IMG/VR virus record: IMGVR_UViG_3300031992_000005
Location: 32,001-96,000 of that record
From: a virus
Direction: 5' to 3' (one strand)
DNA length: 64,000 bases
Part shown: positions 22,635 through 46,879 of the stretch, one piece after another
How positions within the stretch are numbered: position 1 is the stretch's first letter
How the letters are laid out: every line of letters starts with the position of its first letter
Notes under the pieces: generated by a model
Databases searched by the model: none
Seen by the model: the letters and a program-made list of their open reading frames with translations, nothing else
Told to the model about the DNA's origin: nothing
Made by a program: the position numbers and the translations under genes

Positions 22635-22698
22635 TTCAAAAAAAAAATAAGAAGGGAACAACCTAATCTCTAGGTCCCTCCCCTCCTTACTATAAACT

Positions 22699-23964: not shown

Positions 23965-23970
23965 GTTACT

Positions 23971-25392: not shown

Positions 25393-26198
25393 GTTATTTC
25401 TTCTTCTAAGATATAGAACTTTCTAATTAATTCTTTTGCTTTTTCTGCATCACTATTATTAATAGCGACGATAGTATCCTCATACAAAGGAATATTCGAG
25501 CAACTATTATAAGCATTGATTGCTCTCATAACCTGATGGAACACAAACTTAATTGTTTTACTGTTCTTCATCATAGCGCTGGATAATACTCGATACTCAA
25601 CGCCATAATCGGTTAATCTGAAAGCTCCTGCCTTACCATACAGCGATCTTCTCCGAGTATCGGTATCAATAATCACTGATGGTAGTCCTACGAATGCATC
25701 CAGGTACTTTACAAGACACACTGAATCCTCGATATTAGGATTTTCATATCCAATATGCACATGGAATCCTGCTGATCTTAAGCAGGTATTCGTTCCCTTT
25801 GGCTTTGGATTTTCATTCTCAGTGTATGCATTGTAGTCAGGAGAGCACCCAAATAGTTTTGCCAATGGGTGTCTCAGCTGCGTCTTTGGTACCATTTCAC
25901 TTGCAGAACATTTGATTTCCAAATTTGGATCAATGTTCTTGATGTAAGTTGTAATATACTTTTTCATGTAATTGATGTTGTTAAGGAAAGCCAGTTCGCT
26001 AGTAACTGGTGGGATATTGAATTCGGCTAAGATATTATCTATCTCCAATCCAAATCCTTTTGGCATGTCCTCACCAACCCAAGGATTTCCTTTTTCTCCT
26101 GGAATAATACCGATAGCTGATACTACTGGCTTATCGGTTTTTGCACCGTTTACCAGGAACAACTCGGGATCTGCCCCAATTGTAACTTGACTAATCAT
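25371..26198 (-). CDS. phiEco32-like COOH-NH2 ligase type 2 (second amidoligase)
   Basis: IGADPELFLV at the N-terminus, GLEIDNILAEFNIPP and GFHVHIGY resemble the phage COOH-NH2 ligase family. Adjacent to both GATases. Confidence 0.55.
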   Translation of the reverse strand: MISQVTIGADPELFLVNGAKTDKPVVSAIGIIPGEKGNPWVGEDMPKGFGLEIDNILAEFNIPPVTSELAFLNNINYMKKYITTYIKNIDPNLEIKCSASEMVPKTQLRHPLAKLFGCSPDYNAYTENENPKPKGTNTCLRSAGFHVHIGYENPNIEDSVCLVKYLDAFVGLPSVIIDTDTRRRSLYGKAGAFRLTDYGVEYRVLSSAMMKNSKTIKFVFHQVMRAINAYNSCSNIPLYEDTIVAINNSDAEKAKELIRKFYILEEEITCADFSE

Positions 26199-26850
26199 TG
26201 TTCTTTTCCTCCTTTAATTTGATTTGTACAAGCTGACTTTCGATCAATTCGTTCAACATCTTCACCACTGGCTCAGTATCTCTCATAATCTCTGGATGAC
26301 CTTGAATTGCAAGGCATCTTGGATTTCCAGGCTTGGTATAAAGCACTACTTCAGGCTCCACCTTGATTGAATGAACATCAATCTTATCGCCTGCATAATA
26401 ACTGCTAATAGCATTTGCCCAATAGAGGATCTTGTATTCGTTACCAGGTAGATCAAATGGATACTGCATCTGATGATGAGTCGATGTGATCTGATAAGCA
26501 ACACTGCCATTTGTGATCTCATGTGTTCCGTATCTTGCATGACGATCACAATCCTGAATCAACTTACCTCCGTTCATAACGCAGAGGAACTGAGATCCAC
26601 GGCAAATACCAACTGCCAACTGACTTGGTTTGATCGAATCGAACACCTTCTTTTCTGCAGAGTCTCTACCCGCACTGTAATGCGTAGTCGAATGTGCCTG
26701 ACAGCCATAGAGAGATGGATTTACGTCTTCTCCACCAGTGAAAAGCACTACATCTGCATTCTTGATGTCCTTCACCAATTCATGATTGTTAATGAAATTC
26801 GCATAATAGGTTGAACCACCTACTACAAAAACTTTAATCTTCTTTTCCAT
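26191..26850 (-). CDS. class I glutamine amidotransferase / gamma-glutamyl hydrolase-like (peptidase C26-like)
   Basis: Nucleophile elbow GICRGSQFL and catalytic IQGHPE, on a Rossmann-like N-terminus (KVFVVGGS). Confidence 0.75.
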   Translation of the reverse strand: MEKKIKVFVVGGSTYYANFINNHELVKDIKNADVVLFTGGEDVNPSLYGCQAHSTTHYSAGRDSAEKKVFDSIKPSQLAVGICRGSQFLCVMNGGKLIQDCDRHARYGTHEITNGSVAYQITSTHHQMQYPFDLPGNEYKILYWANAISSYYAGDKIDVHSIKVEPEVVLYTKPGNPRCLAIQGHPEIMRDTEPVVKMLNELIESQLVQIKLKEEKNND

Positions 26851-26855
26851 AAAGT

Positions 26856-27695
26856 TTACTTTGATTTAAGAAATTTTTTTGAAATTTTATCTAATATTTC
26901 TCTGTAAACAGAGAATCGTACTTCTCTTTCTTCGCGATTTTCCAGGAATTCTTGTAAATCTCCAGGAAACGCGACAGATGATTTTTTTATTTCACTCAAC
27001 ATTACAAAATCACTTTTTGATAAAGCATGATTTGATGTATATGTTGTAAAAACATTGTTTAATCTACAATTGTCGTATTCGTTTATAAGGTATTCAAGGC
27101 TTGTCTTAATACACCTATTGTTACGATAAATTGGACTATTCGATGAGGGATCAATAAGACTATGTAATTCAAATTCACAAGTACGTCTCGATCCAACATC
27201 AGACACTGTTCTATTCAACAGTGATATCATATTGATTAAACTGACAAACGAATACTTGGGATTATTCTTATGAGCTTTTATAAACTCATGAGCCTCAAAT
27301 AGTAAGAGGTTGTATGGGAATTCATACAGTAGCCTAGTCCAGGCTAGTATGAACTTGTGGTATAATTTTCTACCACCTACATGAAATGCAATTCTAACAT
27401 ATTTATGATTTTGCCATGTATAATCCCCTACCAGTACTTTTGACTCTTTACCTATCAGCTTGAGCCCAAGTTTTACATAGTTCCTAATGAAAGTCTTATC
27501 AAATGGGGCAAAATTGCTATAATGATTTTTCTTTATAGATTCATTTGTCGTATCGACAAGAATTCTATATGTAGAATCAAGCTCACTCTCCGGACTATTA
27601 AAGATGGTTCCGAAGCATGCATGACTATGAAAATTCTTATCTTCTTCTCCTATACAATAAATTGTACGATAACTAATGCATCTCCAATAACTCAT
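26856..27695 (-). CDS. hypothetical protein, paralogue of 27702..28610
   Basis: Shares YHKFILAWTRLLYEFPYNLLLFEAHEF..HKNNPKY with AHKYALFYLRRAYEFPFNMILMDVYRIRRNNPKL in its neighbour. Confidence 0.6.
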   Translation of the reverse strand: MSYWRCISYRTIYCIGEEDKNFHSHACFGTIFNSPESELDSTYRILVDTTNESIKKNHYSNFAPFDKTFIRNYVKLGLKLIGKESKVLVGDYTWQNHKYVRIAFHVGGRKLYHKFILAWTRLLYEFPYNLLLFEAHEFIKAHKNNPKYSFVSLINMISLLNRTVSDVGSRRTCEFELHSLIDPSSNSPIYRNNRCIKTSLEYLINEYDNCRLNNVFTTYTSNHALSKSDFVMLSEIKKSSVAFPGDLQEFLENREEREVRFSVYREILDKISKKFLKSK

Positions 27696-27701
27696 ATAGC
27701 A

Positions 27702-28610
27702 TTATTTTCTAAAATGTTGTCTAACTATATCGTAAATTTCTAGGTATCGATTATTTTTTGCCTCAATTATTTGAGGCTTTAACCAATTTTCTAGGTTACC
27801 TTCTATATCTGTCCCTAAAAGACTTTCTTTTACTAACCTTGTCGAATTATTTGAGAAATATTTCCTAGCAGTTTCCTCTGTAGAAATTGATTTCAAAAAG
27901 TCCTTTGATTTTTGATAACTAACCCAAGACTTTATTTCATCTGTTCCCGTCAGATAATCTAGCCTGTTAGATCTTCCTCCAAAATCAAAATTATCCAATA
28001 AGTTACGAATTTCTTTGTTACTGAACATAAAGCTTCTTGGACCAAAGTTTATATCATGTCCAGAAACAGGAGTAGCAAAAGCTAGTTGATATATTGAATA
28101 TAAGGTCTGCAAAGGTATTCTCCATAACTTAGGATTATTTCGTCTAATCCGATATACATCCATTAATATCATATTAAATGGAAATTCATAAGCTCTTCTT
28201 AAATAGAAGAGAGCATACTTGTGAGCTATAGGTCTACTGTTTATCGTAAAAGATACCTCAAACGCTGGATAACGCTGTATAAAAATATCTTCTATTCTAA
28301 TATCAGATATATCTACTATCTTCACTAACGTCTTGATATACTGTAATAACTGTCTCTTATTAAAGAAACACTTATTATTTATTGAAGAACTGAGTAATTC
28401 TTCTTTATGAGCATCAAGAAATACAAGACTATATCTCAATTCAACTCTCTGATAGCTAGTTATCTTATTTTCTGCTATCTTAGCATCGAAAGCTGAGAAT
28501 ATGGTATTGAAACAAGCACTGTTAGCTACATACCCAACTCCTGTGCTATGAAGGAGCTTTCCTTTATACTTATATAAAGTCTTGAAATTCAAAAACCTAA
28601 ATTCGTTCAT
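27702..28610 (-). CDS. hypothetical protein, paralogue of 26856..27695 (start refined)
   Basis: The 18-codon N-terminal extension in the track (to 28664) is the upstream terminator hairpin read as protein. ATG at 28610 (MNEFRFLNF...). Confidence 0.6.
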   Translation of the reverse strand: MNEFRFLNFKTLYKYKGKLLHSTGVGYVANSACFNTIFSAFDAKIAENKITSYQRVELRYSLVFLDAHKEELLSSSINNKCFFNKRQLLQYIKTLVKIVDISDIRIEDIFIQRYPAFEVSFTINSRPIAHKYALFYLRRAYEFPFNMILMDVYRIRRNNPKLWRIPLQTLYSIYQLAFATPVSGHDINFGPRSFMFSNKEIRNLLDNFDFGGRSNRLDYLTGTDEIKSWVSYQKSKDFLKSISTEETARKYFSNNSTRLVKESLLGTDIEGNLENWLKPQIIEAKNNRYLEIYDIVRQHFRK

Positions 28611-28620
28611 ATTGAATTTA

Positions 28621-28658
28621 AATAAAAAAGTAGAGTACCCCCACAGAAGGTACTCTAC
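28621..28658 (-). terminator. strong intrinsic terminator
   Basis: Perfect 10-bp stem GTAGAGTACC/GGTACTCTAC (28630-28639 with 28649-28658), followed on the minus strand by TTTTTTATT, about 20 nt after the stop at 28679. Confidence 0.75.
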
Positions 28659-28678
28659 ATACAAACGGTTACTTAATC

Positions 28679-29806
28679 TTAGTCTTCGTCGTCTTCAGCT
28701 TCCTTTTCCTTTTCTGGCTGCTTTGCCTCTTCTGGAGCTGGCTGTGGTTGAGGCTGAGCCTGACCACCGAACAGACCACCAAAGAGTCCGCCACCGTTAC
28801 CATTTCCACCGAAAGCGCCGAACGCCTGCATCATCAACAAATCCTTGAAGCTAGACTCGTCACCGTCCTTGTCACCCAAGAAGGCCAACATTGCCAAGTT
28901 ATTTGGAGCCACCTGACCATTGTTCTGGCTGAGGAGCATGAGTGGAAGGAGCTTTGAGAACTTTCCTTCACCTTCACCTTCATCGTCGTTGAGCGCCAAA
29001 AGCATCATAGGGTTGATACCACCACCGAAATTACCTGCGAGCGGAGAAACTACTACACGAACGTAGCTCTCGTTGAACAGGAAGTCCTTAATGGTGTGGA
29101 TAGTCTTGCCCGAACCGGTATAGCTGATCGCCTTGATCTTACCGAATTCGCCGATCTTAATGATCTTAGCAAAACTTCTGTCAAGAGCGATAACGTCACC
29201 CACCTGCAGCTGAGCCTTAGGCTTGCTGATTGTGTAAACTGGAACTGGAAGCGTAAACTCTTTTGGATAAGAGATAAGCTCGTTGTTCTGATTGATTGTG
29301 ACGTAACCTTCGTCGGTTTCTACACAGATGTTACCATCCTGTGCTACTCGTACACCCTTCACCTCTCTTGGCATCAATGTGTCCTTGAGGCGAGCCATGC
29401 AACCTGAAATAGAAGAATTTTTCTTCATGCTGTTTTCCTCCTTGCTTGAATTGTTTGTTTTATTGAATACTGGGATTGCTTCCTTACACCAGGTCTCGTA
29501 ACGAACTCTGTTAGCTACACTGGTGATATTTACTTTCTTAAGACCATAAGATCTCTGGAGTTCGTCAATGTACTCCTGATCTTCCGCAGAGAGCTCATCA
29601 ATAGACTTATCGAAAGTCTTAATGATGTAGAGCGAGTTACCTTTCTTCGTAATGATATTGTCGCCGGCATTTACACCTGTAAGGTGAGCATTGAGTTCTA
29701 CGTTTGCAATGTAAAACTTGCTGTTCTGCTGAGCGAACTTGATTACATCCTTGATGTTCTTAGGAACGAATCCTAGATTAGATGTATAGACAACAAATTT
29801 GTTCAT
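28679..29806 (-). CDS. hypothetical protein with G/L/M-rich C-terminal half and acidic tail (375 aa); GC-rich gene
   Basis: Intact ORF. The 3' two-thirds is conspicuously GC-rich with G/C-ending codons, unlike its neighbours. It has its own terminator. Confidence 0.7.
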   Translation of the reverse strand: MNKFVVYTSNLGFVPKNIKDVIKFAQQNSKFYIANVELNAHLTGVNAGDNIITKKGNSLYIIKTFDKSIDELSAEDQEYIDELQRSYGLKKVNITSVANRVRYETWCKEAIPVFNKTNNSSKEENSMKKNSSISGCMARLKDTLMPREVKGVRVAQDGNICVETDEGYVTINQNNELISYPKEFTLPVPVYTISKPKAQLQVGDVIALDRSFAKIIKIGEFGKIKAISYTGSGKTIHTIKDFLFNESYVRVVVSPLAGNFGGGINPMMLLALNDDEGEGEGKFSKLLPLMLLSQNNGQVAPNNLAMLAFLGDKDGDESSFKDLLMMQAFGAFGGNGNGGGLFGGLFGGQAQPQPQPAPEEAKQPEKEKEAEDDED

Positions 29807-29941: not shown

Positions 29942-29970
29942 TCATACATATGTAAGATTTTAACGGCTTC
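29942..29970 (-). promoter_or_regulatory. promoter-like motif
   Basis: The minus strand reads GAAGCCGTTAAAATCTTACATATGTATGA, about 135 nt upstream of the ATG at 29806, in a divergent intergenic region. Confidence 0.4.
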
Positions 29971-32603: not shown

Positions 32604-32651
32604 TGGACTCTGTATTACTTTAATTCCTTAATCTTGTTAAGGGTTAAAATT

Positions 32652-33017
32652 ATGTTTTCAACTTTATTAGAAATTCAATTTGATGAGGAATTAGAAAATA
32701 TCTACGTACGGAAATATTTTCCAAAAATTCCCTCTAAATACTCCTGGGATCTCACAAATCTATGGGCTAATAATGTATTCTCAGTGAGAGAAGGTCGAGT
32801 AACAGTTTGGTGGTTTAAAGATTGTTATAAAATAAAACCTAGGTTGAGTTTTTATCTTTGTCATAACGTCTTAGGTACACATGTTTGTCTTTCAAGAGAT
32901 ACACTAGATAAAGAATTTTATCATATAAGTACAATATACGAAGCAAATACTAGGTTCGTATTTTATGAATACACAAGAAACTGTTGCTTGTATACTGGCA
33001 AATTAATTGAATTATAA
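32652..33017 (+). CDS. hypothetical protein (121 aa; first ATG used)
   Basis: The track start at 32634 is TTG. The first ATG is at 32652 (MFSTLLEIQ...). Confidence 0.5.
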   Translation: MFSTLLEIQFDEELENIYVRKYFPKIPSKYSWDLTNLWANNVFSVREGRVTVWWFKDCYKIKPRLSFYLCHNVLGTHVCLSRDTLDKEFYHISTIYEANTRFVFYEYTRNCCLYTGKLIEL

Positions 33018-33042
33018 TCCCCATAAAACCTTATAAGTGTAC
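33018..33042 (+). promoter_or_regulatory. promoter-like motif
   Basis: TCCCCATAAAACCTTATAAGTGTAC, about 15 nt upstream of the ATG at 33058. Confidence 0.4.
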
Positions 33043-33057
33043 AAAAACTTAAACTTT

Positions 33058-33516
33058 ATGAAAACTAAAGAGAAATCAGGATTAGTGTTGGTAAGACCAC
33101 TTCCAAAAAAGAAAAAAACTTGCGAAGTTGTTAAGTTCAACGAAAAGGGACAGCAACCTACTACAACGAAAAAGAGTAAGATTGACGACCTGAAGCTAGA
33201 AGACTATAAGAGTTTTCCGGAATGTCTTAAGGCTCTTTATCCGGAGCATAAGTTTAGCTATCGTAACGGAGAAGACGGAAACTACTATACGATAATAGTT
33301 GATGGAGAAGAATCTGATATTACTCTATTTGGCTTCGAATTTATGCCTTCGGAACTAACCCCTGAGGTTGATCAGAGTAATTGGAGAGATTATCTCTTCC
33401 AGATCAACTGCTTCATTGTCGATCTTTACCTAATGGGAGAGAAAACCGATCTTAATGAGGAGGATGTTTACTTCGATGACCCTATGATCGATCCAATCGC
33501 CTTTTTTGATGTATAA
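33058..33516 (+). CDS. hypothetical protein (152 aa; first ATG used)
   Basis: The track start at 33037 is GTG. ATG at 33058 (MKTKEKSG...). Confidence 0.55.
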   Translation: MKTKEKSGLVLVRPLPKKKKTCEVVKFNEKGQQPTTTKKSKIDDLKLEDYKSFPECLKALYPEHKFSYRNGEDGNYYTIIVDGEESDITLFGFEFMPSELTPEVDQSNWRDYLFQINCFIVDLYLMGEKTDLNEEDVYFDDPMIDPIAFFDV

Positions 33517-33564
33517 AACTCTGTTACAGTCCTTAGAAGACCTTACTAAAAAGAAACCACAGTT

Positions 33565-34353
33565 ATGAATAAGGACGCAGTATATGTAATGAAATCACAG
33601 GATAAGACAGCAATCACTATTATCCTGATGAATACTAAATTACCAGTATCAGAAAAAGTACATAAGGCAATCGACAGTCTTAAGACAGTTTCAGATTTAA
33701 TATTCGTATTCTCTGATAGGTTTAGTGAATTTAATAAAGGGATCGATATTCCTAAATTTACTAACTTATATGAGGGATCATTTATTGTAGGTTCCGGACA
33801 AAATGTCATTTTCCCAGTCTTAGAGGCTATCAGTTATTCAGTGAATATCTTTAAGTGTAGAACAATAGTTATCACGGATATTGATAAGCTAGATAAGGGA
33901 AGTGATGTGACTAACCCAGAATGCTTACAAAAATTTACGAATCTGAATGCATCTTCCGTCATAAACCCGATCTTATCTATAGATAGACAGACTTCTAAAG
34001 ACCTATTTGAAATCTATCATACTATGGATACTATTTCGGGAAAAGAGAGGAAAAAGTTCTGGAAATTTTGGGAAGAAGAAAAGAAGCTGGATGAAGTTCC
34101 AACTTCACCTGATAGAAAAAATAGTTTATACCAATCAAGTAGTCAATTCATATTTCTACGAGGATATACTGCAAGGATATTATTCCCTGAAGTAGTATCT
34201 TCAAGAGAAGAAGGTAAAGAGGAGTTTGATGAATATGTTAAAACTTTCAGCGAACCAAATCTAAATTACTTCTTTGCGTCAATAATAAAGACTAGAGGTA
34301 TGGAGTACATTGATGGTGACTTCTTAAATATAAATTTCAATGGAAATTCATAA
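33565..34353 (+). CDS. hypothetical protein (262 aa)
   Basis: Intact ORF. No motif recognised. Confidence 0.6.
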   Translation: MNKDAVYVMKSQDKTAITIILMNTKLPVSEKVHKAIDSLKTVSDLIFVFSDRFSEFNKGIDIPKFTNLYEGSFIVGSGQNVIFPVLEAISYSVNIFKCRTIVITDIDKLDKGSDVTNPECLQKFTNLNASSVINPILSIDRQTSKDLFEIYHTMDTISGKERKKFWKFWEEEKKLDEVPTSPDRKNSLYQSSSQFIFLRGYTARILFPEVVSSREEGKEEFDEYVKTFSEPNLNYFFASIIKTRGMEYIDGDFLNINFNGNS

Positions 34354-34657
34354 ACAGAAGGGACACAATAGTGCATTCCCAGAAAAAATATTAACTTGGA
34401 AAAAGGGACAAAAAGTACCTGAATGGCTAAGCGATAAAGCGAAAGTTGTGGCTATCAACGGAATAGATGGGTCAGCCATACTTGGTACTAGAAATACTAG
34501 CTCTGGGGGAATCGAAATACTCGATTCCTCTGGGACTAGGGTCCTCGTAAGAACCTCAGGAGTGGATGATCTTGTTTGTATTAATGCAGATAACTTGATA
34601 TCAACTCCTTTTGTTCTTACTCCCATACAATTAAGTTTACTATATGAACGAAATTAA
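34340..34657 (+). CDS. hypothetical protein (105 aa)
   Basis: Intact ORF overlapping its neighbours by 14 nt each. Confidence 0.5.
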   Translation: MEIHKQKGHNSAFPEKILTWKKGQKVPEWLSDKAKVVAINGIDGSAILGTRNTSSGGIEILDSSGTRVLVRTSGVDDLVCINADNLISTPFVLTPIQLSLLYERN

Positions 34658-34946
34658 TGACATTTTCTCATTCTTAGATCATTCGATGGAGTGGTTAAAG
34701 AAAAGAGAAGTAACTAAAACTTCTGTTATAATAGAAGAATTGAAGAAGGCAAAAGAAATCCTACAAAAGGATTCTATAGATGACGATCTTAAGCTCTCCT
34801 ATTATAATAATATCAAAGAGAAATTCTTAGAGGTATCGAATAAGATGATTGAATTAAGTCAATTAGAAGACTCCCTATTAACAGCCTTTAGAATACTAGA
34901 AGAGAATGAGATCGATGATAGTGATAGTGAAGAGACTATCGAATAA
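34644..34946 (+). CDS. acidic coiled-coil protein (100 aa)
   Basis: Intact ORF with E/D/K/L-rich heptad-like sequence. Confidence 0.5.
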   Translation: MNEINDIFSFLDHSMEWLKKREVTKTSVIIEELKKAKEILQKDSIDDDLKLSYYNNIKEKFLEVSNKMIELSQLEDSLLTAFRILEENEIDDSDSEETIE

Positions 34947-35298
34947 TACATTTCGATTTTATTGTAAAAATGCAGATCGTGAGAGTTATAGAGAGTTATC
35001 AAATTACCGTTTTGACAAAGAGGAGGATAATAATATCATCACGATAATGGAGTCCGAAAATAATTTCCCAGATTATAAAATATCTCCAAATATATATTTT
35101 ATAATAATTCGGGAAAATGACTTTCTTTGGAAATTTGGAAAACTATCTGGTTACAATAACTATAACTTGGAAGAACAACTTCAGCTTCTCACAAGTAACA
35201 ATAAAGTCGCAAAAATAAAAAAAGCAAAATTAGTTGAAGTAAACAAAAACAATATAGTATATGAATTTAATTATAAAGTGTCCGATTTGTGGACATGA
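34906..35298 (+). CDS. hypothetical protein (130 aa)
   Basis: Intact ORF. The 41-nt overlap with the upstream gene makes the start uncertain. Confidence 0.45.
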   Translation: MRSMIVIVKRLSNNTFRFYCKNADRESYRELSNYRFDKEEDNNIITIMESENNFPDYKISPNIYFIIIRENDFLWKFGKLSGYNNYNLEEQLQLLTSNNKVAKIKKAKLVEVNKNNIVYEFNYKVSDLWT

Positions 35299-35626
35299 AA
35301 TGAAATTAGAAATAAAAGAATTACCAGAAGAGTCTATGTTCTTTGAGATTCTTCCAGCCGTTAGATACGCAGAAGCTAGTTGCCCAGAGTGTAATACTTG
35401 TTATAAGGGAAAACTACACGAAGAGGGTTCAAAGGAATATGAAGATCAAGAGTTCATGGCAAAAGAGGTACTAGAACGCATAGCTGAATTTGAAAAAGTT
35501 TCTAAAAAGATTAACCTACGAAAACTTGGTGCATTAATCCTTCAGCGTTATATGGCAGAAAAAACAGATGAATCCGAAATAACAGAAAAGGGTCTAATGG
35601 ACATTTTCGGATTTGAAAAATTCTAA
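35261..35626 (+). CDS. zinc-ribbon protein (121 aa)
   Basis: CPICGHEM ... CPECNTC forms a four-Cys ribbon. Confidence 0.55.
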   Translation: MNLIIKCPICGHEMKLEIKELPEESMFFEILPAVRYAEASCPECNTCYKGKLHEEGSKEYEDQEFMAKEVLERIAEFEKVSKKINLRKLGALILQRYMAEKTDESEITEKGLMDIFGFEKF

Positions 35627-35635
35627 GAATCTCAG

Positions 35636-35661
35636 AACCCCTTAAAATCTTATATATGTGG
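35636..35661 (+). promoter_or_regulatory. promoter-like motif preceding an ORF-free region
   Basis: AACCCCTTAAAATCTTATATATGTGG is almost identical to the 8924(-) box. Confidence 0.45.
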
Positions 35662-36190
35662 ATAAGGATAAGATATAGTTAAGGAAACTTAACAAGAGGA
35701 AAAATAATTAACCTGCATAGGATAATTATCTATTACTCATATCTTCTCCTTAGAAGCATAATCTAATTAAACATAAAACCTGAAATTTATATTATGACAC
35801 AAAACAACAGTATACTATAATCCGAAATCGGACGAACCGGGGTCTTACTACGGAGTGCTTCTTCAAGGGGAGTGTAGTAAGTGAAGAGTCCCAGGATAAA
35901 ACCGCTTGGGTGGAGTGATAAAAAATGGCTCTTATAGTATACGATGACACAATAACATCGCACAACAAAACTTAGTTCAAGTGGGCCAGAACAGCTTGAT
36001 ATTAACTATCAAGGAGAAACCTGTTGGAATCAGGTAGAGGAGTTGTGCTTTTAGTTGGTTGGATTATCACAAAATTAAAAAAAAAATAGGACGAAACAAT
36101 AATCTGTAAAATAGCTAGTGGTACTTTAGGTAACGCTACCTATAACCAACACCATGAAGATCAAGCTGCATAGTTTGATCATTTTTTTTA
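35662..36190 (+). ncRNA. candidate ~0.5 kb structured non-coding RNA (class unknown)
   Basis: No ORF longer than about 10 codons, with a promoter-like box upstream and a terminator at the 3' end. GC is raised in the core. Nested and long-range perfect helices: 35810-35820/35932-35942 (11 bp), 35844-35851/35874-35881 (8 bp), 35915-35921/36064-36070 (7 bp). Local hairpins at 35678-35693 (GAAA loop), 35995-36013 and 36127-36142. Confidence 0.45.
36159..36190 (+). terminator. intrinsic terminator
   Basis: GATCAAG ... TTTGATC hairpin followed by ATTTTTTTT. Confidence 0.6.
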
Positions 36191-36203
36191 TTCTCTTTTT
36201 TCA

Positions 36204-36230
36204 TCCACTTAAGTCCTTATTTTTGTATTA
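36204..36230 (+). promoter_or_regulatory. promoter-like motif with TAnnTTTG box
   Basis: TCCACTTAAGTCCTTATTTTTGTATTA, where TATTTTTG fits TAnnTTTG, about 20 nt upstream of the ATG at 36248. Confidence 0.45.
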
Positions 36231-36247
36231 TAAAATAAAAAAATATT

Positions 36248-36727
36248 ATGAACAATAGAAATTATTTAGGATTCTTAAAAGAAAAACAGCAATTGTTTAA
36301 TAGAATTGGAATCAAGTGTAAAAGTTTAGATGAACAAGTTTACAAGCTTGAACAAAATGAAAAAGATCTAAGTATTCTTGTAGAAGATCTCAGCGAAAGA
36401 GTTCCATTCAGGCCATTAGTGAAATGTGGAGTAGTAGGTTACCCATTCATCTTAGTGGGAATTGATGTAACTCATGAGAATGTTGCAGTACAGTTGATAA
36501 ATACTTTCAACCATATAAAATTTGAAACAACAATCGATAAGGTAAGACTGTACTTGAGATCTCTAGAGAATATGACAGAGGAAGAAAAACTGGAGGAAGA
36601 AAGACTCCATGATCCTCGAATCTGTATCTCTGAATTAATAACATTCTATAAGAAGAATAACCTCGATTATAGAGGCCTTATCCCAAGAGGTCTTGCAATC
36701 GAACAAATCCCAGAAAACCATGAATAA
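36248..36727 (+). CDS. family A small protein, diverged outlying copy
   Basis: Central LYLRSLENMTEEEK and C-terminal LDYRGLIPRGLAIE match the anchors of the 45-55 kb array. Confidence 0.7.
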   Translation: MNNRNYLGFLKEKQQLFNRIGIKCKSLDEQVYKLEQNEKDLSILVEDLSERVPFRPLVKCGVVGYPFILVGIDVTHENVAVQLINTFNHIKFETTIDKVRLYLRSLENMTEEEKLEEERLHDPRICISELITFYKKNNLDYRGLIPRGLAIEQIPENHE

Positions 36728-36845
36728 GTTATTACAACAACTTTGCGAGGAATTACCTAATTATTCTACAGGTAAAGACGGTAAGCCTTACTTAAGGCCA
36801 TTAACTAACATGACCGAAGAAGAATTAAGGACATTTCGAATTTAA
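36720..36845 (+). pseudogene. truncated family A copy (41 codons: N-terminal and central anchors only)
   Basis: Hand translation gives MNKLLQQLCEELPNYSTGKDGKPYLRPLTNMTEEELRTFRI-stop. It lacks the whole C-terminal anchor. Confidence 0.6.
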
Positions 36846-36848
36846 GTG

Positions 36849-37082
36849 ATGACTCTTGTAAAAAAATTAGGAGAAAAGTTATATAACTGGACAAATAAAA
36901 ACCTACACTTCCTAATTGGTATTGCAATAATAGGAATTGTCTGTTCTATTATTGGACACTATGGAACAATGGGATTTGATCTCAGGTGGTTTTTTGGATT
37001 TGAATTACCATTATACCTATTTCTCCTTTGGGCTATTTTTAAAATAATGAAAATTTTTAAAAATAATGGATCAAAAAGATAA
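36849..37082 (+). CDS. small two-TM membrane protein (77 aa)
   Basis: Hydrophobic helices FLIGIAIIGIVCSIIG and LPLYLFLLWAIFKIM. ATG at 36849. Confidence 0.55.
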   Translation: MTLVKKLGEKLYNWTNKNLHFLIGIAIIGIVCSIIGHYGTMGFDLRWFFGFELPLYLFLLWAIFKIMKIFKNNGSKR

Positions 37083-37527
37083 GGAAAAATTAATTCAGAT
37101 TATTTGTGCAATGTTTCCCTACGGTTTAAACTGCTACTACACAATAGATGAAAAGTGGCATAGTATTACCGGAGTAGAAAATGATGCGGTGAGGTTATTG
37201 GGATCTAACGGTCGTCATGAATTTGTTGAAAAGTGGGAAGGAGATCTAGATACAATCAAGATCGGACTTCGACCACTATCTACAATGACCGAAAAAGAGA
37301 AGGAAGAACTATATACAGATCCAGATACTGATTATCTTTGTCGTGCAACAGTAATTGTTCCAGAAAATGAAGAAATTTATTTTAGGTTTGTTGATACCAA
37401 AATCGAATTTCTTTATAAAAACGTTACATTCTTCTTTAAGAAGAAATTTGATATATTGGGTCTAATAGAACAAGGTTTAGCAAAAGAGTATAACTATGAT
37501 AATGATAAATCCTTGGGCAGGATATGA
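37066..37527 (+). CDS. family A small protein, diverged outlying copy
   Basis: KLIQIICAMFPYGLNC, IGLRPLSTMTEKEKEEL and FDILGLIEQGLAKE are collinear with the array anchors. Confidence 0.7.
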   Translation: MDQKDKEKLIQIICAMFPYGLNCYYTIDEKWHSITGVENDAVRLLGSNGRHEFVEKWEGDLDTIKIGLRPLSTMTEKEKEELYTDPDTDYLCRATVIVPENEEIYFRFVDTKIEFLYKNVTFFFKKKFDILGLIEQGLAKEYNYDNDKSLGRI

Positions 37528-37804
37528 TCCAGATGATATACCTGACCTAAATCCTCATAGTAAAGAGGAGGAATATGGATGTATTGCAGGAATTATAGCA
37601 TTCTGTTTATCTTCTGCTATATTCATTGCACTTCAGGCAGTGATATTGAAGCTTAAATTAAGCGACACCATAGATACAAACATGCATATGGCCCTCATCT
37701 TAGTAAATATAATCATTTTTGTGATTATAACAATATGTTTTATGAAGCTGTCTTTTAAGATAGCTGATTATCTCTATGATAGAAATAAAAAGAAAAAATT
37801 ATGA
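37496..37804 (+). CDS. small membrane protein (102 aa)
   Basis: Two TM helices and a basic C-terminus, with an ATGA overlap to the next gene. Confidence 0.5.
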   Translation: MIMINPWAGYDPDDIPDLNPHSKEEEYGCIAGIIAFCLSSAIFIALQAVILKLKLSDTIDTNMHMALILVNIIIFVIITICFMKLSFKIADYLYDRNKKKKL

Positions 37805-39840
37805 AAACAATAGAAGAAAAAGCAAAAGCTTATGATGAGTTCTTAAAAAGAGCAAAAGAACTATACAACAAAGACCACTATAAATCCGAAGACCTCAAAT
37901 ATATCTTTGGAGATGACCTGAAAGAAGAAAATGATGGGAAAAATTTAATAGAAACCCTCATTAACTTCTTCACTTCTTATAAGATCGAAAAAGTTGGAGA
38001 ATTTACAAGTGATCAGATAGTGGGCTGGCTGAAAAAGCAGCTTGAGAGACCAAAATATGAGTGGAGTGGGAAAATCACGTCCCGTAAAGCAAAAGGAAAG
38101 TTAAGTGCATTACTGAAAGATCTTGAGTCTCGGAAAAAGATCGACAATAGACCAATCTTTAGAATTGGCGATACACTCAAGAAAAAAGGAAAAGACTATA
38201 CTTTCACCGTTGATAGAATACAGGGCGGATATTATCACTGTGATCGCAATAATGGTGCCTTCTTTCCTATAGAGGAACAGTATGATTGGGAACTTATTGA
38301 TGATGGGAAAATATCCCCAAAATTTAAGGCCGGGGATTGGATCGTTTCACCAAATAATTTAGTTTTCAAAATTACTCATGCAAGTTCGCATAGCTACACA
38401 CTACATCTATATAACGATGATTATAGGATATTTGAAACTGAAAGTTGGCATATAGATAAAGAATATCACCTCTGGACTATTGCTGATGCAAAGCCCGGCG
38501 ATGTCCTTTACCATTCAGACAGTGCAAGCCACGGGATTTTCATCTTCAAGGGAATCCTCCAAATGGGGTTTAGTGAGAAGGTCACGTGCTATTGCGACTA
38601 TGATTCGGAAGATGGCTTCTGTATTGGTGAAAACCACACCTGTTGCTGGACAGACAGCAAGATTCTACATCCAGCAACCAAAGAACAGCAAAAAATTTTA
38701 TTCCAAAAAATGAAAGAAGCTGGGTGGACTTGGGATGATGAGAAGAAAGAGCTTGAACAGAAGTCTATAGATGAGGCTGAGTCGGAATTTAAGATTGGCG
38801 ACTGGATTACATTCTATGGATATAAGCCACTTAAAATACTTAAAATTGAACCAGAACAAAGTGGTATTTTGGATTATCTTTTATTAAACTTAAGTGGTCA
38901 TGACACTTATTATAATAAAAGACAAGTTGATAAAAAAGCAAGACTGTGGACAATAGAAGATGCCAAGGATGGTGATGTCCTTGCATCACACGAATGTTAC
39001 GTGAGATTCAAAGAAATTGATGGACCCAACATTAGGTGTTACTGCACGTATCATTATATGAATGATCCGAGTTTTAGTATAAATACCCTGCACAACAAGA
39101 GTGCCTTTCATCCAGCCACTAAAGAGGAATGTGAACTTTTATTCCAAAAAGCGAAAGAGGAAGGATATGAATGGGATAAAGAGCATAAGAATAGTGAAAC
39201 AGAAAATGAGACTGTTGAAAAGTTCATAGTTGGAAAATGGTATTTATGCATAAAGGATTTCTTTGGCAAGGGTGTTCGTTTCGATAAAGGGATTGCATAT
39301 TATTGCGCAAAAGAAGGATGTCTGCAATGTGAATATGGATGTCATATAGCGATCGTCAAAGATCTGTATGATTATTTCAAATTGTGGACAATCCAAGATG
39401 CCAAGGATGGAGATGTCCTTGTATCTACATGGAAAGGGAATCAATACATCTATATATTTAAAAATATAGAACATGATGCCATTATATCATACATCTATTA
39501 TTGTCCTAAATTTGACGAAGTGGATATAGATGCTGCTATCAATATGGATAACATCCCAACAGTTCCTGCAACAAAAGAACAACAGGAGTTGCTTTTCTCA
39601 AAAATAAAGGAAGAAGGTTACAAGTGGGATGATACTAAAAAATTAGAGGTAGATACGAACCAAAATAGTTCGTCCATTACTGAACAGAATCTTACTTGGA
39701 GTGAGGAAGATGAAGTTATGTGCCAGGAAACTATAGATTGGTTTGAACAGAAGTGTTTTCCTTATGCTTCAGAAGAAGAAAATCCTGCAAAGAAAAGTAT
39801 TCAGTGGCTCAAATCACTAAAACAAAAAATGGGAAAGTGA
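37801..39840 (+). CDS. family B large repeat protein (679 aa; three ~130-aa modules)
   Basis: The internal module occurs three times: F.IGDW... then [HRK]LWTI.DAK.GDVL... then [HV]PATKE[QE]...LF.K.KE.G[YW].WD. There is one WLKKQ element near the N-terminus. Confidence 0.75.
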   Translation: MKTIEEKAKAYDEFLKRAKELYNKDHYKSEDLKYIFGDDLKEENDGKNLIETLINFFTSYKIEKVGEFTSDQIVGWLKKQLERPKYEWSGKITSRKAKGKLSALLKDLESRKKIDNRPIFRIGDTLKKKGKDYTFTVDRIQGGYYHCDRNNGAFFPIEEQYDWELIDDGKISPKFKAGDWIVSPNNLVFKITHASSHSYTLHLYNDDYRIFETESWHIDKEYHLWTIADAKPGDVLYHSDSASHGIFIFKGILQMGFSEKVTCYCDYDSEDGFCIGENHTCCWTDSKILHPATKEQQKILFQKMKEAGWTWDDEKKELEQKSIDEAESEFKIGDWITFYGYKPLKILKIEPEQSGILDYLLLNLSGHDTYYNKRQVDKKARLWTIEDAKDGDVLASHECYVRFKEIDGPNIRCYCTYHYMNDPSFSINTLHNKSAFHPATKEECELLFQKAKEEGYEWDKEHKNSETENETVEKFIVGKWYLCIKDFFGKGVRFDKGIAYYCAKEGCLQCEYGCHIAIVKDLYDYFKLWTIQDAKDGDVLVSTWKGNQYIYIFKNIEHDAIISYIYYCPKFDEVDIDAAINMDNIPTVPATKEQQELLFSKIKEEGYKWDDTKKLEVDTNQNSSSITEQNLTWSEEDEVMCQETIDWFEQKCFPYASEEENPAKKSIQWLKSLKQKMGK

Positions 39841-42030: not shown

Positions 42031-44142
42031 ATGATCAACTCTGAAATTATACTAGAGAACATAGTAAAAATCGTAAAAGATGAGAAAAACAGTGATATTG
42101 GTTTTTCTAAAATCTATTCTTACTTATGTGAAAATTTCCCCGAACTCAAAGAGAACGAGGATAAGAAAATAAGAAAGGAATTGATTGATTTCTTGCAAGA
42201 AACCATTGACAATGTTGGTGAATATTCTCCCAATAATTGGGAAAACAAAGCTAAAAAATGGATTGCTTGGCTAGAAAAGCAGAGCAGACAGAAGGCTGTT
42301 GATTGTGAAAATACCCAACAGAAGGATATTGTTCAAGAACCAGAACCAGAGGATGAGAGAATAAGAAATTGGTGTATTTCACATTTTAAGGAATGTATTA
42401 GAGTCTCGAAAATTAACGTGGAATACCAAAAATATCTTAGTAACAAAGTAATCCCTTGGCTTGAGAAGCAAGGTGAACAAAAGAATCTTGCACAAAAACC
42501 AATAACAGGGGATGAGAGAATAAGAAAAGGTCTCATCCATGCGGTATCTGGAACATTGAAAGGTAACACTTTGTTCGGCACTGACGTAACAAGAGAAGAG
42601 GCGTTATCTTGGCTTGAAAAGCAAGGTAAAAATTCACAATGCAGATCAATCATAGAAGCGTGGAAAGATATGCGTTTAGAAGTGTATCAACAAGCGAGTG
42701 GTAATAGGCATGAGCCTAATTATTCTGATGACAGTACTAAGATGTTTTCGCTCAATGACATTGACGAAATAATTGAAAAGATAAACGAGCAAACAGAAAA
42801 GCAAGACTACGAATCTCAGGACATCACAGAATCAAAACCAGCAGTAGGAACTTTGGCTGATGAAATTAAGTTTCCCTTTAAAGCCAAGGTGAAAAAGAGC
42901 AATAAAATTATCGTAATTACAGGTGGACAATTAGACGATGCTCAACCAATAGAATCTCGCTCATACCTAGCATATACATCTGACATAACTGATGGATATA
43001 AGGTATATAAGCCAGAGGAATTAGAATTTATAAAACAACCTGGGTTCAAAGTAGGGGACTGGGTGGTAAATAAATTAGGTGATGCCTGGCATATAGATAG
43101 TTTCTATGGGGAAAACTATCAAGTTTCTAATGGAAAAGGAAACTTTAGTTACTTCCCAATATCCAAGCAAGATGAAATGCACCTCTGGACGATTCGAGAT
43201 GCAAAAGAAGGTGATGTGCTTGTAGATGCGTATGGAAACATAGGTATATATGAGAAATGTGATTATTCTGATTGGAGGTCTTATTGTTCTTTAGGGCATA
43301 ACGGAGGTTTTCAACATTTTAAAACAGAACACGAAAATGAAAAAACGTATCCAGCCACCAAAGAACAGCGTGATGCTCTTGAAAAGGCTATAACTAATGC
43401 AGGTTATTCATGGGATGGAGAGTTAAAGAAAAATACGAAGTTTAGTAAAGGGGATTGGATTTACCGAGGAACAGGAGATCCTTATTTTGTAGAATCAGTC
43501 TTTAACGAGCAATATGAATTGTGCTCGGGATTTGGGTATCATTTCAACAAGGGAACTGATGAAGTTGATAGCGATTACAGGCTCTGGAATATAAATGACG
43601 CCAAGCTTGGTGATATTCTTGCGGATGATGATAAAACAATCGCCCTTTATGAAGAACAATCCACAAAGACATTCTTTCACGTCCTTTGCTATTACTGTAA
43701 TAAGACATTTGTACCGAAAAAGGGTACACTTGCTGTCCTAGGTTTTCACCCAGCAACCAAAGAGCAAAGAGAATTTTTCAGTAATGAACTAAAAAAGTCA
43801 GGATATAACTTGGATTTAGAGAAAAAACAACTGGCTGATCAGCCTAAACTCACTAAGTTTGAGCAGTCCTTAAAGCACATTATTGAAGAAGCCTTAGATG
43901 ATGGAGATACACATAATCTTAAGGCTGATGCAGAACTACTTCTATCGGTAGCAAATCAGGATAGAGCTAAGATTGAGTTAACCATAGAAGAAGAAGATGC
44001 CCTCGACCAGGCTATTATATCACTTAATGATATGTTTGATGATAGTCAACCTGAAACTTGTTATGCAGGTCATCACGTACCCTTTGATGTAGCAGCTAAA
44101 TGTCTTAGTAGCTTAAAAGATAAGATTCTAAACAGTAAGTAA
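42031..44142 (+). CDS. family B large repeat protein (703 aa; three [DE]E[KR]IR-WLEKQ units plus two ~130-aa modules)
   Basis: ENEDKKIRKEL..WIAWLEKQ, EDERIRNW..VIPWLEKQ and GDERIRKGL..LSWLEKQ are followed by two modules carrying LWTIRDAKEGDVL/YPATKEQRDAL and LWNINDAKLGDIL/HPATKEQREFF. Confidence 0.75.
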   Translation: MINSEIILENIVKIVKDEKNSDIGFSKIYSYLCENFPELKENEDKKIRKELIDFLQETIDNVGEYSPNNWENKAKKWIAWLEKQSRQKAVDCENTQQKDIVQEPEPEDERIRNWCISHFKECIRVSKINVEYQKYLSNKVIPWLEKQGEQKNLAQKPITGDERIRKGLIHAVSGTLKGNTLFGTDVTREEALSWLEKQGKNSQCRSIIEAWKDMRLEVYQQASGNRHEPNYSDDSTKMFSLNDIDEIIEKINEQTEKQDYESQDITESKPAVGTLADEIKFPFKAKVKKSNKIIVITGGQLDDAQPIESRSYLAYTSDITDGYKVYKPEELEFIKQPGFKVGDWVVNKLGDAWHIDSFYGENYQVSNGKGNFSYFPISKQDEMHLWTIRDAKEGDVLVDAYGNIGIYEKCDYSDWRSYCSLGHNGGFQHFKTEHENEKTYPATKEQRDALEKAITNAGYSWDGELKKNTKFSKGDWIYRGTGDPYFVESVFNEQYELCSGFGYHFNKGTDEVDSDYRLWNINDAKLGDILADDDKTIALYEEQSTKTFFHVLCYYCNKTFVPKKGTLAVLGFHPATKEQREFFSNELKKSGYNLDLEKKQLADQPKLTKFEQSLKHIIEEALDDGDTHNLKADAELLLSVANQDRAKIELTIEEEDALDQAIISLNDMFDDSQPETCYAGHHVPFDVAAKCLSSLKDKILNSK

Positions 44143-44148: not shown

Positions 44149-44178
44149 TCCTCCCTTAACGGGGAGGGATTCTTTTTT
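44149..44178 (+). terminator. intrinsic terminator
   Basis: TCCTCCC-TTAACG-GGGAGGG hairpin followed by ATTCTTTTTT, just after the stop at 44142. Confidence 0.65.
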
Positions 44179-44846: not shown

Positions 44847-45082
44847 TCAGTAGAGAAGAAGCTAAGAGACAATGCCTTGAATGGGTAGATAAAGAAATTT
44901 CAGAAAAAGGCGAGGATTCTATATATTGCTTATCTCCTTGTATTGGAAAAAATAGCTGGACTCTAAAAGAATATAGAGATGCAGTTATTAACGATGTACC
45001 AATGGAAGGTTGCATAGACAATCCAATAGACGATTATCTTAACTATATAAAATGGAAGGATGAACATGGACGAGGAAAATAA
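44843..45082 (+). CDS. hypothetical protein (79 aa)
   Basis: ATGA overlap with the upstream gene. Confidence 0.5.
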   Translation: MISREEAKRQCLEWVDKEISEKGEDSIYCLSPCIGKNSWTLKEYRDAVINDVPMEGCIDNPIDDYLNYIKWKDEHGRGK

Positions 45083-45476
45083 GTTATTGAGATTTCTCAG
45101 TATGGCTTTACCTTATGGAGTTTTTTGTATAAACTCCGAAGATGAGAATAGTAAAGCCTATAAGCTAAAATCAATTAATAAGCATAAAGGATTATGGTAT
45201 TATGGGTTTGATGGATTTAGCTGTCTTAAACCATTACCGTATCTCCGCCCATTATCTTCTATGACCGAAGAAGAGCATAGTAACTTATTCAATGCTTATC
45301 ATTACTTAGAGGTGAAAGTAGCAAAGTCAACAGGAGATTACTTAAAAGCGGCTTATATAGGTGATGATGCTAAGTATAAGTGGCTTCTTGAAAATAAGTT
45401 TGACTTTCTAGACTTAATTTCAGATGGATTAGCTATTGAAATTACTGAGGAAAACAATCCGTATAAGAAGTTATGA
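45060..45476 (+). CDS. family A small protein, array copy 1
   Basis: KLLRFLSMALPYGVFC; LPYLRPLSSMTEEE; KWLLENKFDFLDLISDGLAIEITEENNPYKKL. Confidence 0.8.
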   Translation: MNMDEENKLLRFLSMALPYGVFCINSEDENSKAYKLKSINKHKGLWYYGFDGFSCLKPLPYLRPLSSMTEEEHSNLFNAYHYLEVKVAKSTGDYLKAAYIGDDAKYKWLLENKFDFLDLISDGLAIEITEENNPYKKL

Positions 45477-45685
45477 AAACATTTCACTTATTTGGAAAAT
45501 GGCAAGTAACCTTTCTTCATAATATTTACATTAATGAAGATACAAAGAGACTGTCAGAGCTAATAGTTACCCTTATTCCAACTATTCAAATCCTAATAGG
45601 CGGAAAAGGGATAGATGATGAGATATTGATTTCTTGGTTAATATTTACAATACAAGTAGATAATGGCTATTCAAACAGTAAATAA
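45473..45685 (+). CDS. hypothetical protein (70 aa)
   Basis: ATGA overlap with copy 1. No family A motif. Confidence 0.45.
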   Translation: MKTFHLFGKWQVTFLHNIYINEDTKRLSELIVTLIPTIQILIGGKGIDDEILISWLIFTIQVDNGYSNSK

Positions 45686-46064
45686 ATTATGCACCTCAAT
45701 TGGACAATCTAACAACCTGAGATCATTAGGACTTGATATCCATACCGCCGACACTTATTGGTGGTTTTCAGGCGATAAGTTCTATATGGGGACGATGGAT
45801 GATGGTGATTTCGACGAAAAAGCTGATCAACCTTCTTGGAGCTTAGCTGCACTGGAAAAGTTAATTCCGCCAACTATAACTGATGATGAAGGTGAAACTT
45901 ATAAAATTTCTATAACAAAAAATGAACAAAGTAAAAAGTGGACTGCTTGCTATGTAAACAAAGAGCACGATCAGGTCTGCTGTATCTTCTGTGAAGAATC
46001 TCCGGACCTAATAGATGTTTTTTATAACACGGTATGTATGTTACTACTTGCGAAAAAAATATGA
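45663..46064 (+). CDS. family E protein (paralogue of 54153..54575)
   Basis: Shares S.GQSNNLRSLGLDIHTADTY and QPSWSLAALEKLIP with SAEQSKRLVELGIDVNTADM and EPAWSLSALLDLLP. Confidence 0.6.
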   Translation: MAIQTVNKLCTSIGQSNNLRSLGLDIHTADTYWWFSGDKFYMGTMDDGDFDEKADQPSWSLAALEKLIPPTITDDEGETYKISITKNEQSKKWTACYVNKEHDQVCCIFCEESPDLIDVFYNTVCMLLLAKKI

Positions 46065-46432
46065 ATACTGCAGAAGAATTTATAAAAAAGTATCCTGTAG
46101 GTACATTAATTTCATACATAGAAGGAGTACAGTATGTACGATCTGGTGCAAGAACTATCTTCAAAATAGGTAGATATGAACGGCGCACGAATGATCCTTG
46201 GGGATATTATATGTATGGGACCTACTGCGGATTTAACTTTCAAACAACAAGTTATAAGAAAGAATATTCTACATCAGACTTACCAAAGTGGCGATGTATC
46301 ATTTGCGAGACTGACCCCTTCGGTACTTCTTTAGGAATACTATCACATAAATTTAACGACGTTAGACTTGCAAACGACCTTGAAACTAGTATATTCAATG
46401 ACTGCATAACTAACGGAAGAGTAATCTCATGA
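46061..46432 (+). CDS. hypothetical protein (123 aa; start refined)
   Basis: The ATG at 46061 forms an ATGA overlap with the upstream stop (MNTAEEFIKKYPVG...). Confidence 0.55.
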   Translation: MNTAEEFIKKYPVGTLISYIEGVQYVRSGARTIFKIGRYERRTNDPWGYYMYGTYCGFNFQTTSYKKEYSTSDLPKWRCIICETDPFGTSLGILSHKFNDVRLANDLETSIFNDCITNGRVIS

Positions 46433-46863: not shown

Positions 46864-46879
46864 ACATTCCAAACCTAAG

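Follow-up and report, generated by a model that had tools for sequence, protein, structure and literature searches.

Between a promoter motif and an intrinsic terminator in the genome of a rumen phage lies a unit of ~0.5 kb that most likely makes a non-coding RNA. The original prediction had described a promoter-to-terminator unit of this size with no gene in it, and the repeated motif, the terminator and six interrupted reading frames all agree with this description. It had also proposed a novel ncRNA built from nested helices. The RNA proposed is non-coding, bounded by promoter and terminator and outside any described family, as had been claimed, but the argument from nested helices did not stand, these helices being at chance level. 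We regard it as evenly balanced whether the unit functions as a non-coding RNA whose structure is under selection: support for a functional RNA is moderate, and the evidence so far does not justify claiming a selected multi-helix architecture. That the unit encodes an orphan structured RNA, a member of no described family, is plausible.

A gene-free unit with a repeated promoter motif and a shared terminator

The unit is located in a window of 64,000 nucleotides, the whole stretch of DNA that was analysed. Proteins encoded on its flanks were found in rumen metagenomes (ENA, JGI and Logan) on contigs of up to 353,905 bp, and the genome (~354 kb) encodes a Glu/Gln-tRNA synthetase, topoisomerase II and a putative base-modification operon. 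The source is an uncultivated rumen jumbo phage. The loci compared here stem from runs SRR7633495, SRR7634034, SRR7634052, SRR10838750, SRR9006729 and SRR9006805 and from JGI datasets 3300024337, 3300024342, 3300024345, 3300035054 and 3300037675. Searching 5.8 billion proteins with the 121-aa and 159-aa flanking proteins detected no homologue below 92% identity, and none in IMG/VR, hence every comparison presented here is within one species. Searches of INPHARED with DNA and protein yielded no relatives, a 16-mer scan of IMG/VR with the unit gave chance matches only while two more patterns gave no match, and a 20-mer scan of GTDB genomes gave chance matches only, in Duganella. From outside the phage species, no homologue was thus obtained in INPHARED, IMG/VR, JGI contigs or GTDB genomes. 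A Shine-Dalgarno-like motif was found in only 4 of 73 genes versus 11% in the background; such scarcity fits a Bacteroidota-type host, and the host is probably Prevotella or a different member of the Bacteroidota.

Upstream of the unit is a gene for a 121-aa zinc-ribbon protein (35261-35626, + strand, TAA stop at 35624-35626). Downstream, a gene of 159 aa (36248-36727, + strand) heads a long same-strand array of paralogous genes. The 621 nt between the two ORFs hold no credible reading frame; with ORFs of at least 70 aa masked, the unit is the second largest ORF-free gap in the window, where only ten such gaps reach at least 180 nt. TAA, TAG and TGA are all present in each of the six frames across the unit. 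This mix of all three stop codons rejects recoding as an explanation, and a protein-coding gene with a reassigned stop codon was therefore ruled out. The longest internal ATG ORF on the + strand, previously put at about 8 codons, was found to have 16 (35925-35975). An ATG ORF of 34 codons (36154-36258) spans the terminator and the next promoter box and is put out of frame by the T8/T9 length variant, and the minus strand of the unit carries two 58-codon ORFs with GTG/TTG starts. Comparison of all window ORFs with the region by tblastn, as for a pseudogene or decayed gene copy, gave no similarity, even weak, and no paralogues of the unit were found in the window or in the retrieved loci. The G+C content is 0.43 at 35800-35999 versus 0.26-0.32 on both flanks, in line with the GC-richer core noted at the outset.

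The promoter-like box had been reported as repeated, and CCNNTAAAAYCTTAYANNTG indeed occurs in four copies in the window versus 0.37 expected. The copy heading the unit, CCCTTAAAATCTTATATATG at 35639-35658 (+ strand), would place a transcription start near 35665. The remaining copies are at 33020-33039 (+ strand), 8929-8948 (- strand) and 29947-29966 (- strand), located 19, 48 and 141 nt upstream of an ORF start, respectively; the two on the minus strand are the most similar to the box of the unit, and a gene follows each of them. The Bacteroidota -7 promoter element is TAnnTTTG, and the last eight bases of every one of the four boxes, TATATATG in the box at 35639-35658, resemble it. In two Logan contigs from different runs, an Illumina adapter is fused to position 33054, 15 nt past the copy at 33020-33039, indicating a defined molecule end there. 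A sigma-70-like ATGACA-16-TATAAT is also present at 35794-35821 (+ strand), within an AT-rich linker of the unit, and ACAGTnnACTATAATC at 35807-35822 has an exact second copy at 18901-18916 on the minus strand.

The terminator is where it had been predicted. At 36159-36190 (+ strand), a 9-bp stem with a GCAU loop spans 36159-36180 and is followed by T8 (T9 in variants), and no other terminator-like site was found on the + strand from the stop codon at 35626 to the ORF at 36248. The terminator is thus common to any transcript arriving from the upstream operon and, because none lies between 35626 and 36159, the unit is at least an untranslated tail of ~560 nt of that operon. As had been noted, the next gene has a box of its own (36204-36234, + strand), which contains TATTTTTG and matches 62179-62209, upstream of the topoisomerase gene. 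It begins 14 nt after the T-run of the terminator, differs from the motif at 35639-35658 and lies outside the RNA, as the right-hand limit of the unit.

We propose that RNA polymerase coming from the upstream operon, with starts near 32647 and 33054, would run on to 36159-36190, as no terminator follows the gene at 35261-35626, and that the motif copy at 35639-35658, if it fires, would add a shorter RNA of ~525 nt with the same 3' end. The product would be a structured RNA of four domains, and cleavage in the AT-rich linker, at a putative site near 35780, may mature it to a core of ~410 nt.

Predicted fold and its variation among haplotypes

The folding energy of the 531-nt RNA corresponds to z = -4.07 on the + strand and -3.58 on the - strand. 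As a background we used 107 windows of 300 nt from the same genome, with a mean z of -1.25 (sd 1.16). Within the unit, the two 300-nt sub-windows that begin at 35660 and at 35810 gave z of -3.2 to -3.3, and 3 of the 107 background windows were lower. The folding stability of the unit is ~1.7 SD beyond the background of its own genome, and the overall fold is not exceptional.

Every complementarity described for the nested helices is present in the sequence, but taken singly the helices do not exceed chance: 8.5% of dinucleotide shuffles of the region contain an inverted repeat of 11 bp or more, and all of them contain one of 7 bp or more. The 7-bp helix 35915-35921/36064-36070 that had been suggested appears in none of the predicted folds, and the closing pair of the 8-bp helix 35844-35851/35874-35881 becomes A·A in other haplotypes. 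An invertible segment between the 11-bp inverted repeats was considered as well and rejected, since contigs break at 35780/35809 and not at the expected 35821 and the repeat is at chance level.

The predicted fold has four domains, all on the + strand. Domain 1 (35660-35752) is an extended hairpin of 93 nt with a three-way junction and includes the GAAA-tetraloop hairpin at 35678-35693. It has the best z among the domains, -4.90 on the + and -4.83 on the - strand, and the near equality of these values indicates a strand-symmetric imperfect palindrome. The AT-rich linker (35753-35809) leads to domain 2 (35810-35942; z = -2.89), which is GC-richer, multi-branched and closed by the 11-bp helix 35810-35820/35932-35942. 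Domain 3 (35943-36050; z = -2.20) consists of a small hairpin at 35943-35959 and the helix 35960-35966/36042-36048, which encloses hairpins at 35995-36013 and 36019-36035. Domain 4 (36051-36152) is built from the helix 36054-36060/36144-36150, an A-rich internal loop with a variable run of A7-A10 and a hairpin at 36111-36143, the variant form of which has z = -3.83. Reading the sequence by eye, we noticed that AGCUUGAU at 35994-36001 is perfectly complementary over 8 bp to the 5' arm of the terminator at 36160-36167, a pairing that is at chance level because every shuffle has an inverted repeat of at least 7 bp.

Three haplotypes ~2-3% apart were recovered, all from one phage species, and they are mosaic around the unit. 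Seven of the eight single-base differences are in domain 2 and the eighth, at 35951, is in domain 3. Substitutions cluster at 35834-35913 (domain 2) and in the hairpin 36111-36143, whereas 35593-35833 and 35952-36075 are free of substitutions in all haplotypes, leaving domain 1 invariant. Length variation in the unit is limited to homopolymer runs. Relative to the L014/L015 haplotype, the substitution density amounts to ~3% across the unit, compared with 1.5-1.9% for the flanking genes; a density that is not below that of the neighbouring genes indicates that there is no blanket constraint. Of the seven changes of domain 2, five fall at positions left unpaired by the consensus fold, one replaces a G·U pair by A-U and one disrupts a terminal pair, a pattern that is weak evidence since the consensus fold was fitted to those same haplotype sequences.

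The one element that proved informative is the hairpin at 36111-36143, which differs between haplotypes. Three positions of each arm change, with AGC/CCU replaced by GUU/AGC, so that an A-U pair becomes G-C, a G-C pair becomes U·G and a C·C mismatch becomes U-A. The hairpin thus stays or becomes paired through coupled changes of its arms. On the minus strand, or in DNA, its U·G pairs would read A·C, an asymmetry that points to RNA of the + strand. Across the whole fold, 103 of 116 predicted pairs never vary and two changed on both sides, a result matched in 53 of 500 shuffles and, resting on three sequences, not statistically strong.

In a fourth lineage, L028, the last 160 nt of the unit carry 0-1 substitutions, against a divergence of 5.3% for the 57-nt spacer and 6.9% for the next gene, and the divergence starts right where the terminator ends. 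The boundary may reflect selection acting on what is transcribed, or else a recombination joint, in which case the low divergence would not be a sign of selection. Comparative support for a selected structure is thin, and would consist only of the hairpin at 36111-36143 and the low 3' divergence of L028.

Transcript-like contigs, known systems and competing explanations

Three JGI contigs from three samples (L025, L029 and L040) share an end at 36068 and have their starts at 32647, 32649 and 32676; a fourth JGI sample gave a contig (L039) that extends from 32652 to 35782. The starts at ~32650 lie just past a TAATCTTG element that heads the + strand operon. A sister contig extends from 36209 to ~44190 and ends just beyond an intrinsic terminator at 44149-44178. 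The limits of these contigs coincide with the ends of transcription units, which suggests that RNA was the source of several samples. In that case the unit would be transcribed, and its assembly in one piece with the upstream operon agrees with the absence of a terminator between 35626 and 36159. The transcript-like contigs show no break at the predicted start near 35665, and the JGI contigs do not bridge 36069-36208. Inside the region, contigs from several samples begin or end at 35780, 35782, 35809, 35975, 36068 and 36155. Those in the linker were seen at 35780/35809 in three Logan runs and at 35782 in one JGI sample, which hints that assemblies branch, or an RNA ends, within the AT-rich linker, at 35780-35809.

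The original prediction could assign no known RNA class, and our search of the whole window with Rfam 15 (4227 covariance models) gave no match at the gathering thresholds of the families. A permissive scan (E <= 10) of 35400-36400 and 35770-36195 returned only snoRNA, miRNA and CrcZ matches of 9.9-19 bits, and ARAGORN detected no tRNA or tmRNA gene in the whole window. In our reading the unit resembles neither a riboswitch nor an RNA that regulates by base pairing. No riboswitch, T-box or attenuator model, that is no aptamer or leader model, matched it, and antisense targeting of 138 translation-start regions, evaluated by a crude method, gave a best duplex of -36.7 kcal/mol, within the shuffled range of -33 to -44.

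Among known systems, bacterial sRNAs derived from 3'UTRs share the terminator of an mRNA; those of type I have an internal promoter (DapZ, MicL) and those of type II are products of RNase E cleavage (CpxQ). The unit has the layout of such RNAs: it follows the last ORF of the operon without an intervening terminator, has its 3' end at the intrinsic terminator of that operon, and carries an internal promoter motif and a possible cleavage site in the AU-rich linker. It differs from them in size, at ~410-525 nt being five to ten times longer than their 50-100 nt, in having several domains, and in that no seed-like complementarity to start regions was found for it. To our knowledge, Hfq-type machinery is not established in Bacteroidota. 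ROOL (RF03087) and GOLLD (RF01998) are large structured RNAs of prophages and phages, usually found beside tRNA genes. Like them, the unit is ~0.5 kb, phage-borne, non-coding and multi-domain, with a function that is not evident from its context; unlike them, it has no tRNA genes nearby, is confined to one phage species and not spread over a broad family, and fails their covariance models even at E <= 10. By analogy, terminator-sharing 3'UTR-derived RNAs would be the closest by layout, and ROOL and GOLLD by size and carrier.

Among possible roles we favour that of a stable, trans-acting RNA that binds protein as a scaffold or decoy, a guess to which, taken as this specific role, we give only a low probability. 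Large structured RNAs borne by phages are, as far as we know, rare and almost none has a known function. The very few examples would be joined by a further one if the RNA of this rumen jumbo phage is real. With promoter, terminator and domains delimited, the unit is experimentally tractable. The evidence covers one orphan locus in one uncultivated phage and speaks modestly for selection, and the unit is of value mainly as a locus to which public rumen RNA-seq reads can be mapped.

Several other explanations have to be weighed against a functional RNA. The unit could be only the untranslated tail of the operon and a regulatory spacer, with a weak or relic promoter copy and with hairpins that are incidental or slow 3' exonucleases; we consider this possible, though on the doubtful side. 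It would account for the lack of a terminator at 35626-36159, for contigs continuous over ~32650-36068 and unbroken at the box, and for a fold z unexceptional for the genome, single helices at chance level and a substitution density that is not reduced. Yet such a tail would occupy 560 nt in a window with few long ORF-free gaps, and its box would be one of four strong motif matches, the two most similar of which each precede a gene. The coupled arm changes of the hairpin 36111-36143, length variation only in homopolymer runs, and the 0-1 substitutions of L028 in 160 nt against 6.9% in the next gene are also at odds with it. A different possibility is that the unit acts in cis, as a leader that controls read-through of the terminator into the downstream paralogous array by attenuation or by processive antitermination. 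The put RNAs of phage HK022 are processive antitermination leaders of ~70 nt with two hairpins, and the unit shares with them a structured RNA just after a phage promoter and before a terminator and a long gene array. The order of promoter, structured RNA, strong terminator and same-strand array is in keeping with such control, as are the position of domain 1, with the best z (-4.9), right behind the promoter and the perfect complementarity of 35994-36001 to the terminator 5' arm at 36160-36167. Nevertheless a leader of this kind appears improbable: there is no sign of read-through at the unit; the JGI contigs lack a bridge over 36069-36208; the array has its own promoter, the box of the next gene being 14 nt past the T-run; no aptamer or leader model matches; and the 8-bp complementarity is expected by chance.

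The same region could work as DNA, with palindromes acting at that level in a replication origin, a packaging or terminal-repeat boundary or a recombination hotspot. We judge this quite improbable. The strand symmetry of domain 1 (z of -4.90 and -4.83), the contig ends of many samples inside the region and the mosaic haplotypes around it speak for a DNA element, but the cumulative GC skew runs straight through the region without a turn, no iterons or direct repeats were found, co-occurring haplotypes also account for the contig breaks, and the U·G pairs of the covarying hairpin would be mismatches in DNA and on the other strand. Least credible is a small protein encoded on the minus strand (35787-35963, 58 codons, GTG start), which we think hardly likely at all. 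Five of the eight haplotype substitutions are synonymous in this frame (binomial estimate ~p = 0.05 before correction for the number of frames), while the three non-synonymous changes are radical (R>C, R>L, C>S). The frame also lacks an ATG and a promoter motif, is antisense to all neighbouring genes and leaves the other 400 nt unexplained.

A join between the unit and a group I intron

Scanning the JGI contigs with a 20-mer, we obtained one true match, contig L033. It consists of the unit from 35952 to 36161, in the L015-type haplotype, followed by a group I intron with an HNH endonuclease ORF. The contig leaves the unit after ...CCAUGAGGAU, and U36161 is joined to nucleotide 1 of the intron, which matches Intron_gpI (RF00028) at E = 0.009. 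The normal site of the same intron is in the topoisomerase II gene of this phage genome, after ...UUAGGAU. A Logan contig (L038) is a circular unitig whose exact 30-nt end overlap yields the full-length group I intron of 1508 nt. A circle is expected for excised intron RNA and not for DNA, and it is therefore counted among the signs of RNA-derived samples. The circle also fixes the first nucleotide of the intron, so that the L033 join falls precisely on the 5' splice site. The AGGAU before the join pairs, as read from the sequence, with the intron guide GUCCU, a U·G wobble included.

Past the intron, L033 continues into the topoisomerase 3' exon and not into the remainder of the unit, indicating that this is not a simple intron insertion. 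For the same reason, a reading of the unit as the 5' leader of an intron-containing gene in L033 was rejected, the 3' exon belonging to the topoisomerase gene. The unit was also considered as a group I intron itself, on account of an S-element-like GAUAUAGUCC at the L033 junction, and this too was dropped, as the motif is the P1 hairpin of the topoisomerase intron. The unit resembles RF00028 introns in being structured, ORF-free and GC-richer than its surroundings, but it shows no RF00028 match at E <= 10 and no intron core with P/Q/R/S elements, and no GACUAU/AUAGUC pair was found on reading its sequence. Nor is it placed between joinable exons of one reading frame: the upstream ORF ends before the box, and the downstream ORF is extensible by only 3 codons.

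The L033 join possibly arose by a ribozyme-catalysed joining of RNAs, by a template switch of reverse transcriptase at an 8-nt microhomology or by a DNA rearrangement. If it arose at the RNA level, it would be independent evidence of the + strand of the unit as RNA. We think it very improbable that the unit represents a new class, namely a multi-domain phage RNA of ~0.4-0.5 kb that is an operon tail with its own promoter and reacts in trans with the phage's own group I intron. If true, a self-splicing intron and a separate non-coding RNA would be reacting with each other in trans under natural conditions, and a join at the exact splice site, if made at the RNA level, would matter more than the RNA of the unit. 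In a trans reaction of this kind, the 3' segment of the unit, ...AUGAGGAU, would mimic the 5' exon of the intron, and L033 would be a join made by the ribozyme.

A group I intron and its junction with the unit

A group I intron interrupts the gene for the topoisomerase II large subunit (62221-63828). It occupies positions 63829-64000 and runs beyond the end of the window; in the metagenome loci L034/L035 it lies at 5854-7360. An ORF for an HNH endonuclease begins inside it, at 63986. In the P1 helix of this intron the exon sequence GCGGAU is paired with the guide GUCCGU, and the core carries GCGGGGAAC as its P element and AAUCCGC as its Q element. Compared with the window, the intron of the L015-type genome, another haplotype of the same phage species, is located about 80 codons further on in the topoisomerase gene, after ...UUAGGAU, and its HNH endonuclease differs from that of the window type (63% identity).

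We noticed that in the metagenome contigs L033/L037 (JGI 3300024337, positions 1-260) the + strand of the unit, window 36153-36161, breaks off at U36161 and continues directly with the first nucleotide of the topoisomerase intron, a join that may have been made in RNA or in DNA. The AGGAU immediately preceding the join pairs with the intron guide GUCCU. This match to the guide is found only in the haplotype with G at 36158, the window sequence being GAAGAU.

The complete intron of 1508 nt, identical to L033 209-1716, was also recovered as a circular unitig (L038, Logan SRR7633495), the ends of which overlap exactly over 30 nt. L038 has the appearance of an intron RNA that was excised at full length and circularized, a resemblance implying that SRR7633495 includes RNA-derived reads.

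Contig ends and pattern scans

The 5' ends of two contigs from unrelated runs, L026 and L030, consist of Illumina adapter sequence joined to window position 33054, which is 15 nt past the promoter box copy at 33020-33039 (+) and precedes the ATG at 33058 by 4 nt. The 3' limits of both contigs coincide as well, at base 35975. A scan of metagenome contigs with the N-run pattern GGAGAAANNNNNTTGGAATNNNNNTAGAGGAG returned 0 matches, yet L033, from the same collection, carries the exact pattern; because of this missed match, negatives obtained from patterns with N runs may be unreliable.

Other ORF-poor stretches of the window

The largest ORF-poor gap contains a second promoter-to-terminator unit, on the minus strand at 18385-18920 (folding z = -7.53). 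It includes an ORF for a hydrophobic protein of 58 aa (18649-18825); after this come hairpins of very high strength and a terminator common to both strands. Upstream in this unit is the motif ACAGTGAACTATAATC, which agrees with 35807-35822 of the unit under study, at the border of its AT-rich linker and domain 2, at 14/14 specified positions. A further ~600 nt (18940-19560) are without a convincing ORF except for an 88-aa ATG frame at 19015-19281, and comparison of this stretch with Rfam yielded weak noise only, e.g. Pistol at 19.1 bits (E = 0.98).

Neighboring genes and repeated blocks

A string of minus-strand genes spans 20978-29806, its first gene lying downstream of the promoter box copy at 29947-29966. 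At its far end (20978-25392) are three genes that together may constitute a DNA base-modification module; their products are a nucleotidyltransferase (phrog_388), an amidoligase (phrog_2443) and a protein resembling glutamine amidotransferases. The phage also encodes, on the minus strand, a BspA-type leucine-rich repeat protein (1715-2926) and a class I Glu/Gln-tRNA synthetase (12147-13727; PF00749, E = 1e-92); despite the latter, the 64-kb window contains no tRNA genes.

At least 14 paralogous genes of ~135 aa each are arranged in a tandem array at 45060-55000 and also at 36248-37527. They have in common DNA blocks encoding ...PYLRPMSSMTEEE... and ...DWLxxNHFDYRGLIEKGLAIE...; their C-terminal part matches phrog_10841 weakly, and no match was found in INPHARED. 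A separate 54-nt block, encoding ...LWTIQDAKDGDVL..., is present in 6 copies between 38455 and 43620, hosted by a 679-aa ORF (37801-39840), ORFs between 41013 and 42062, and a 703-aa ORF (42031-44142).
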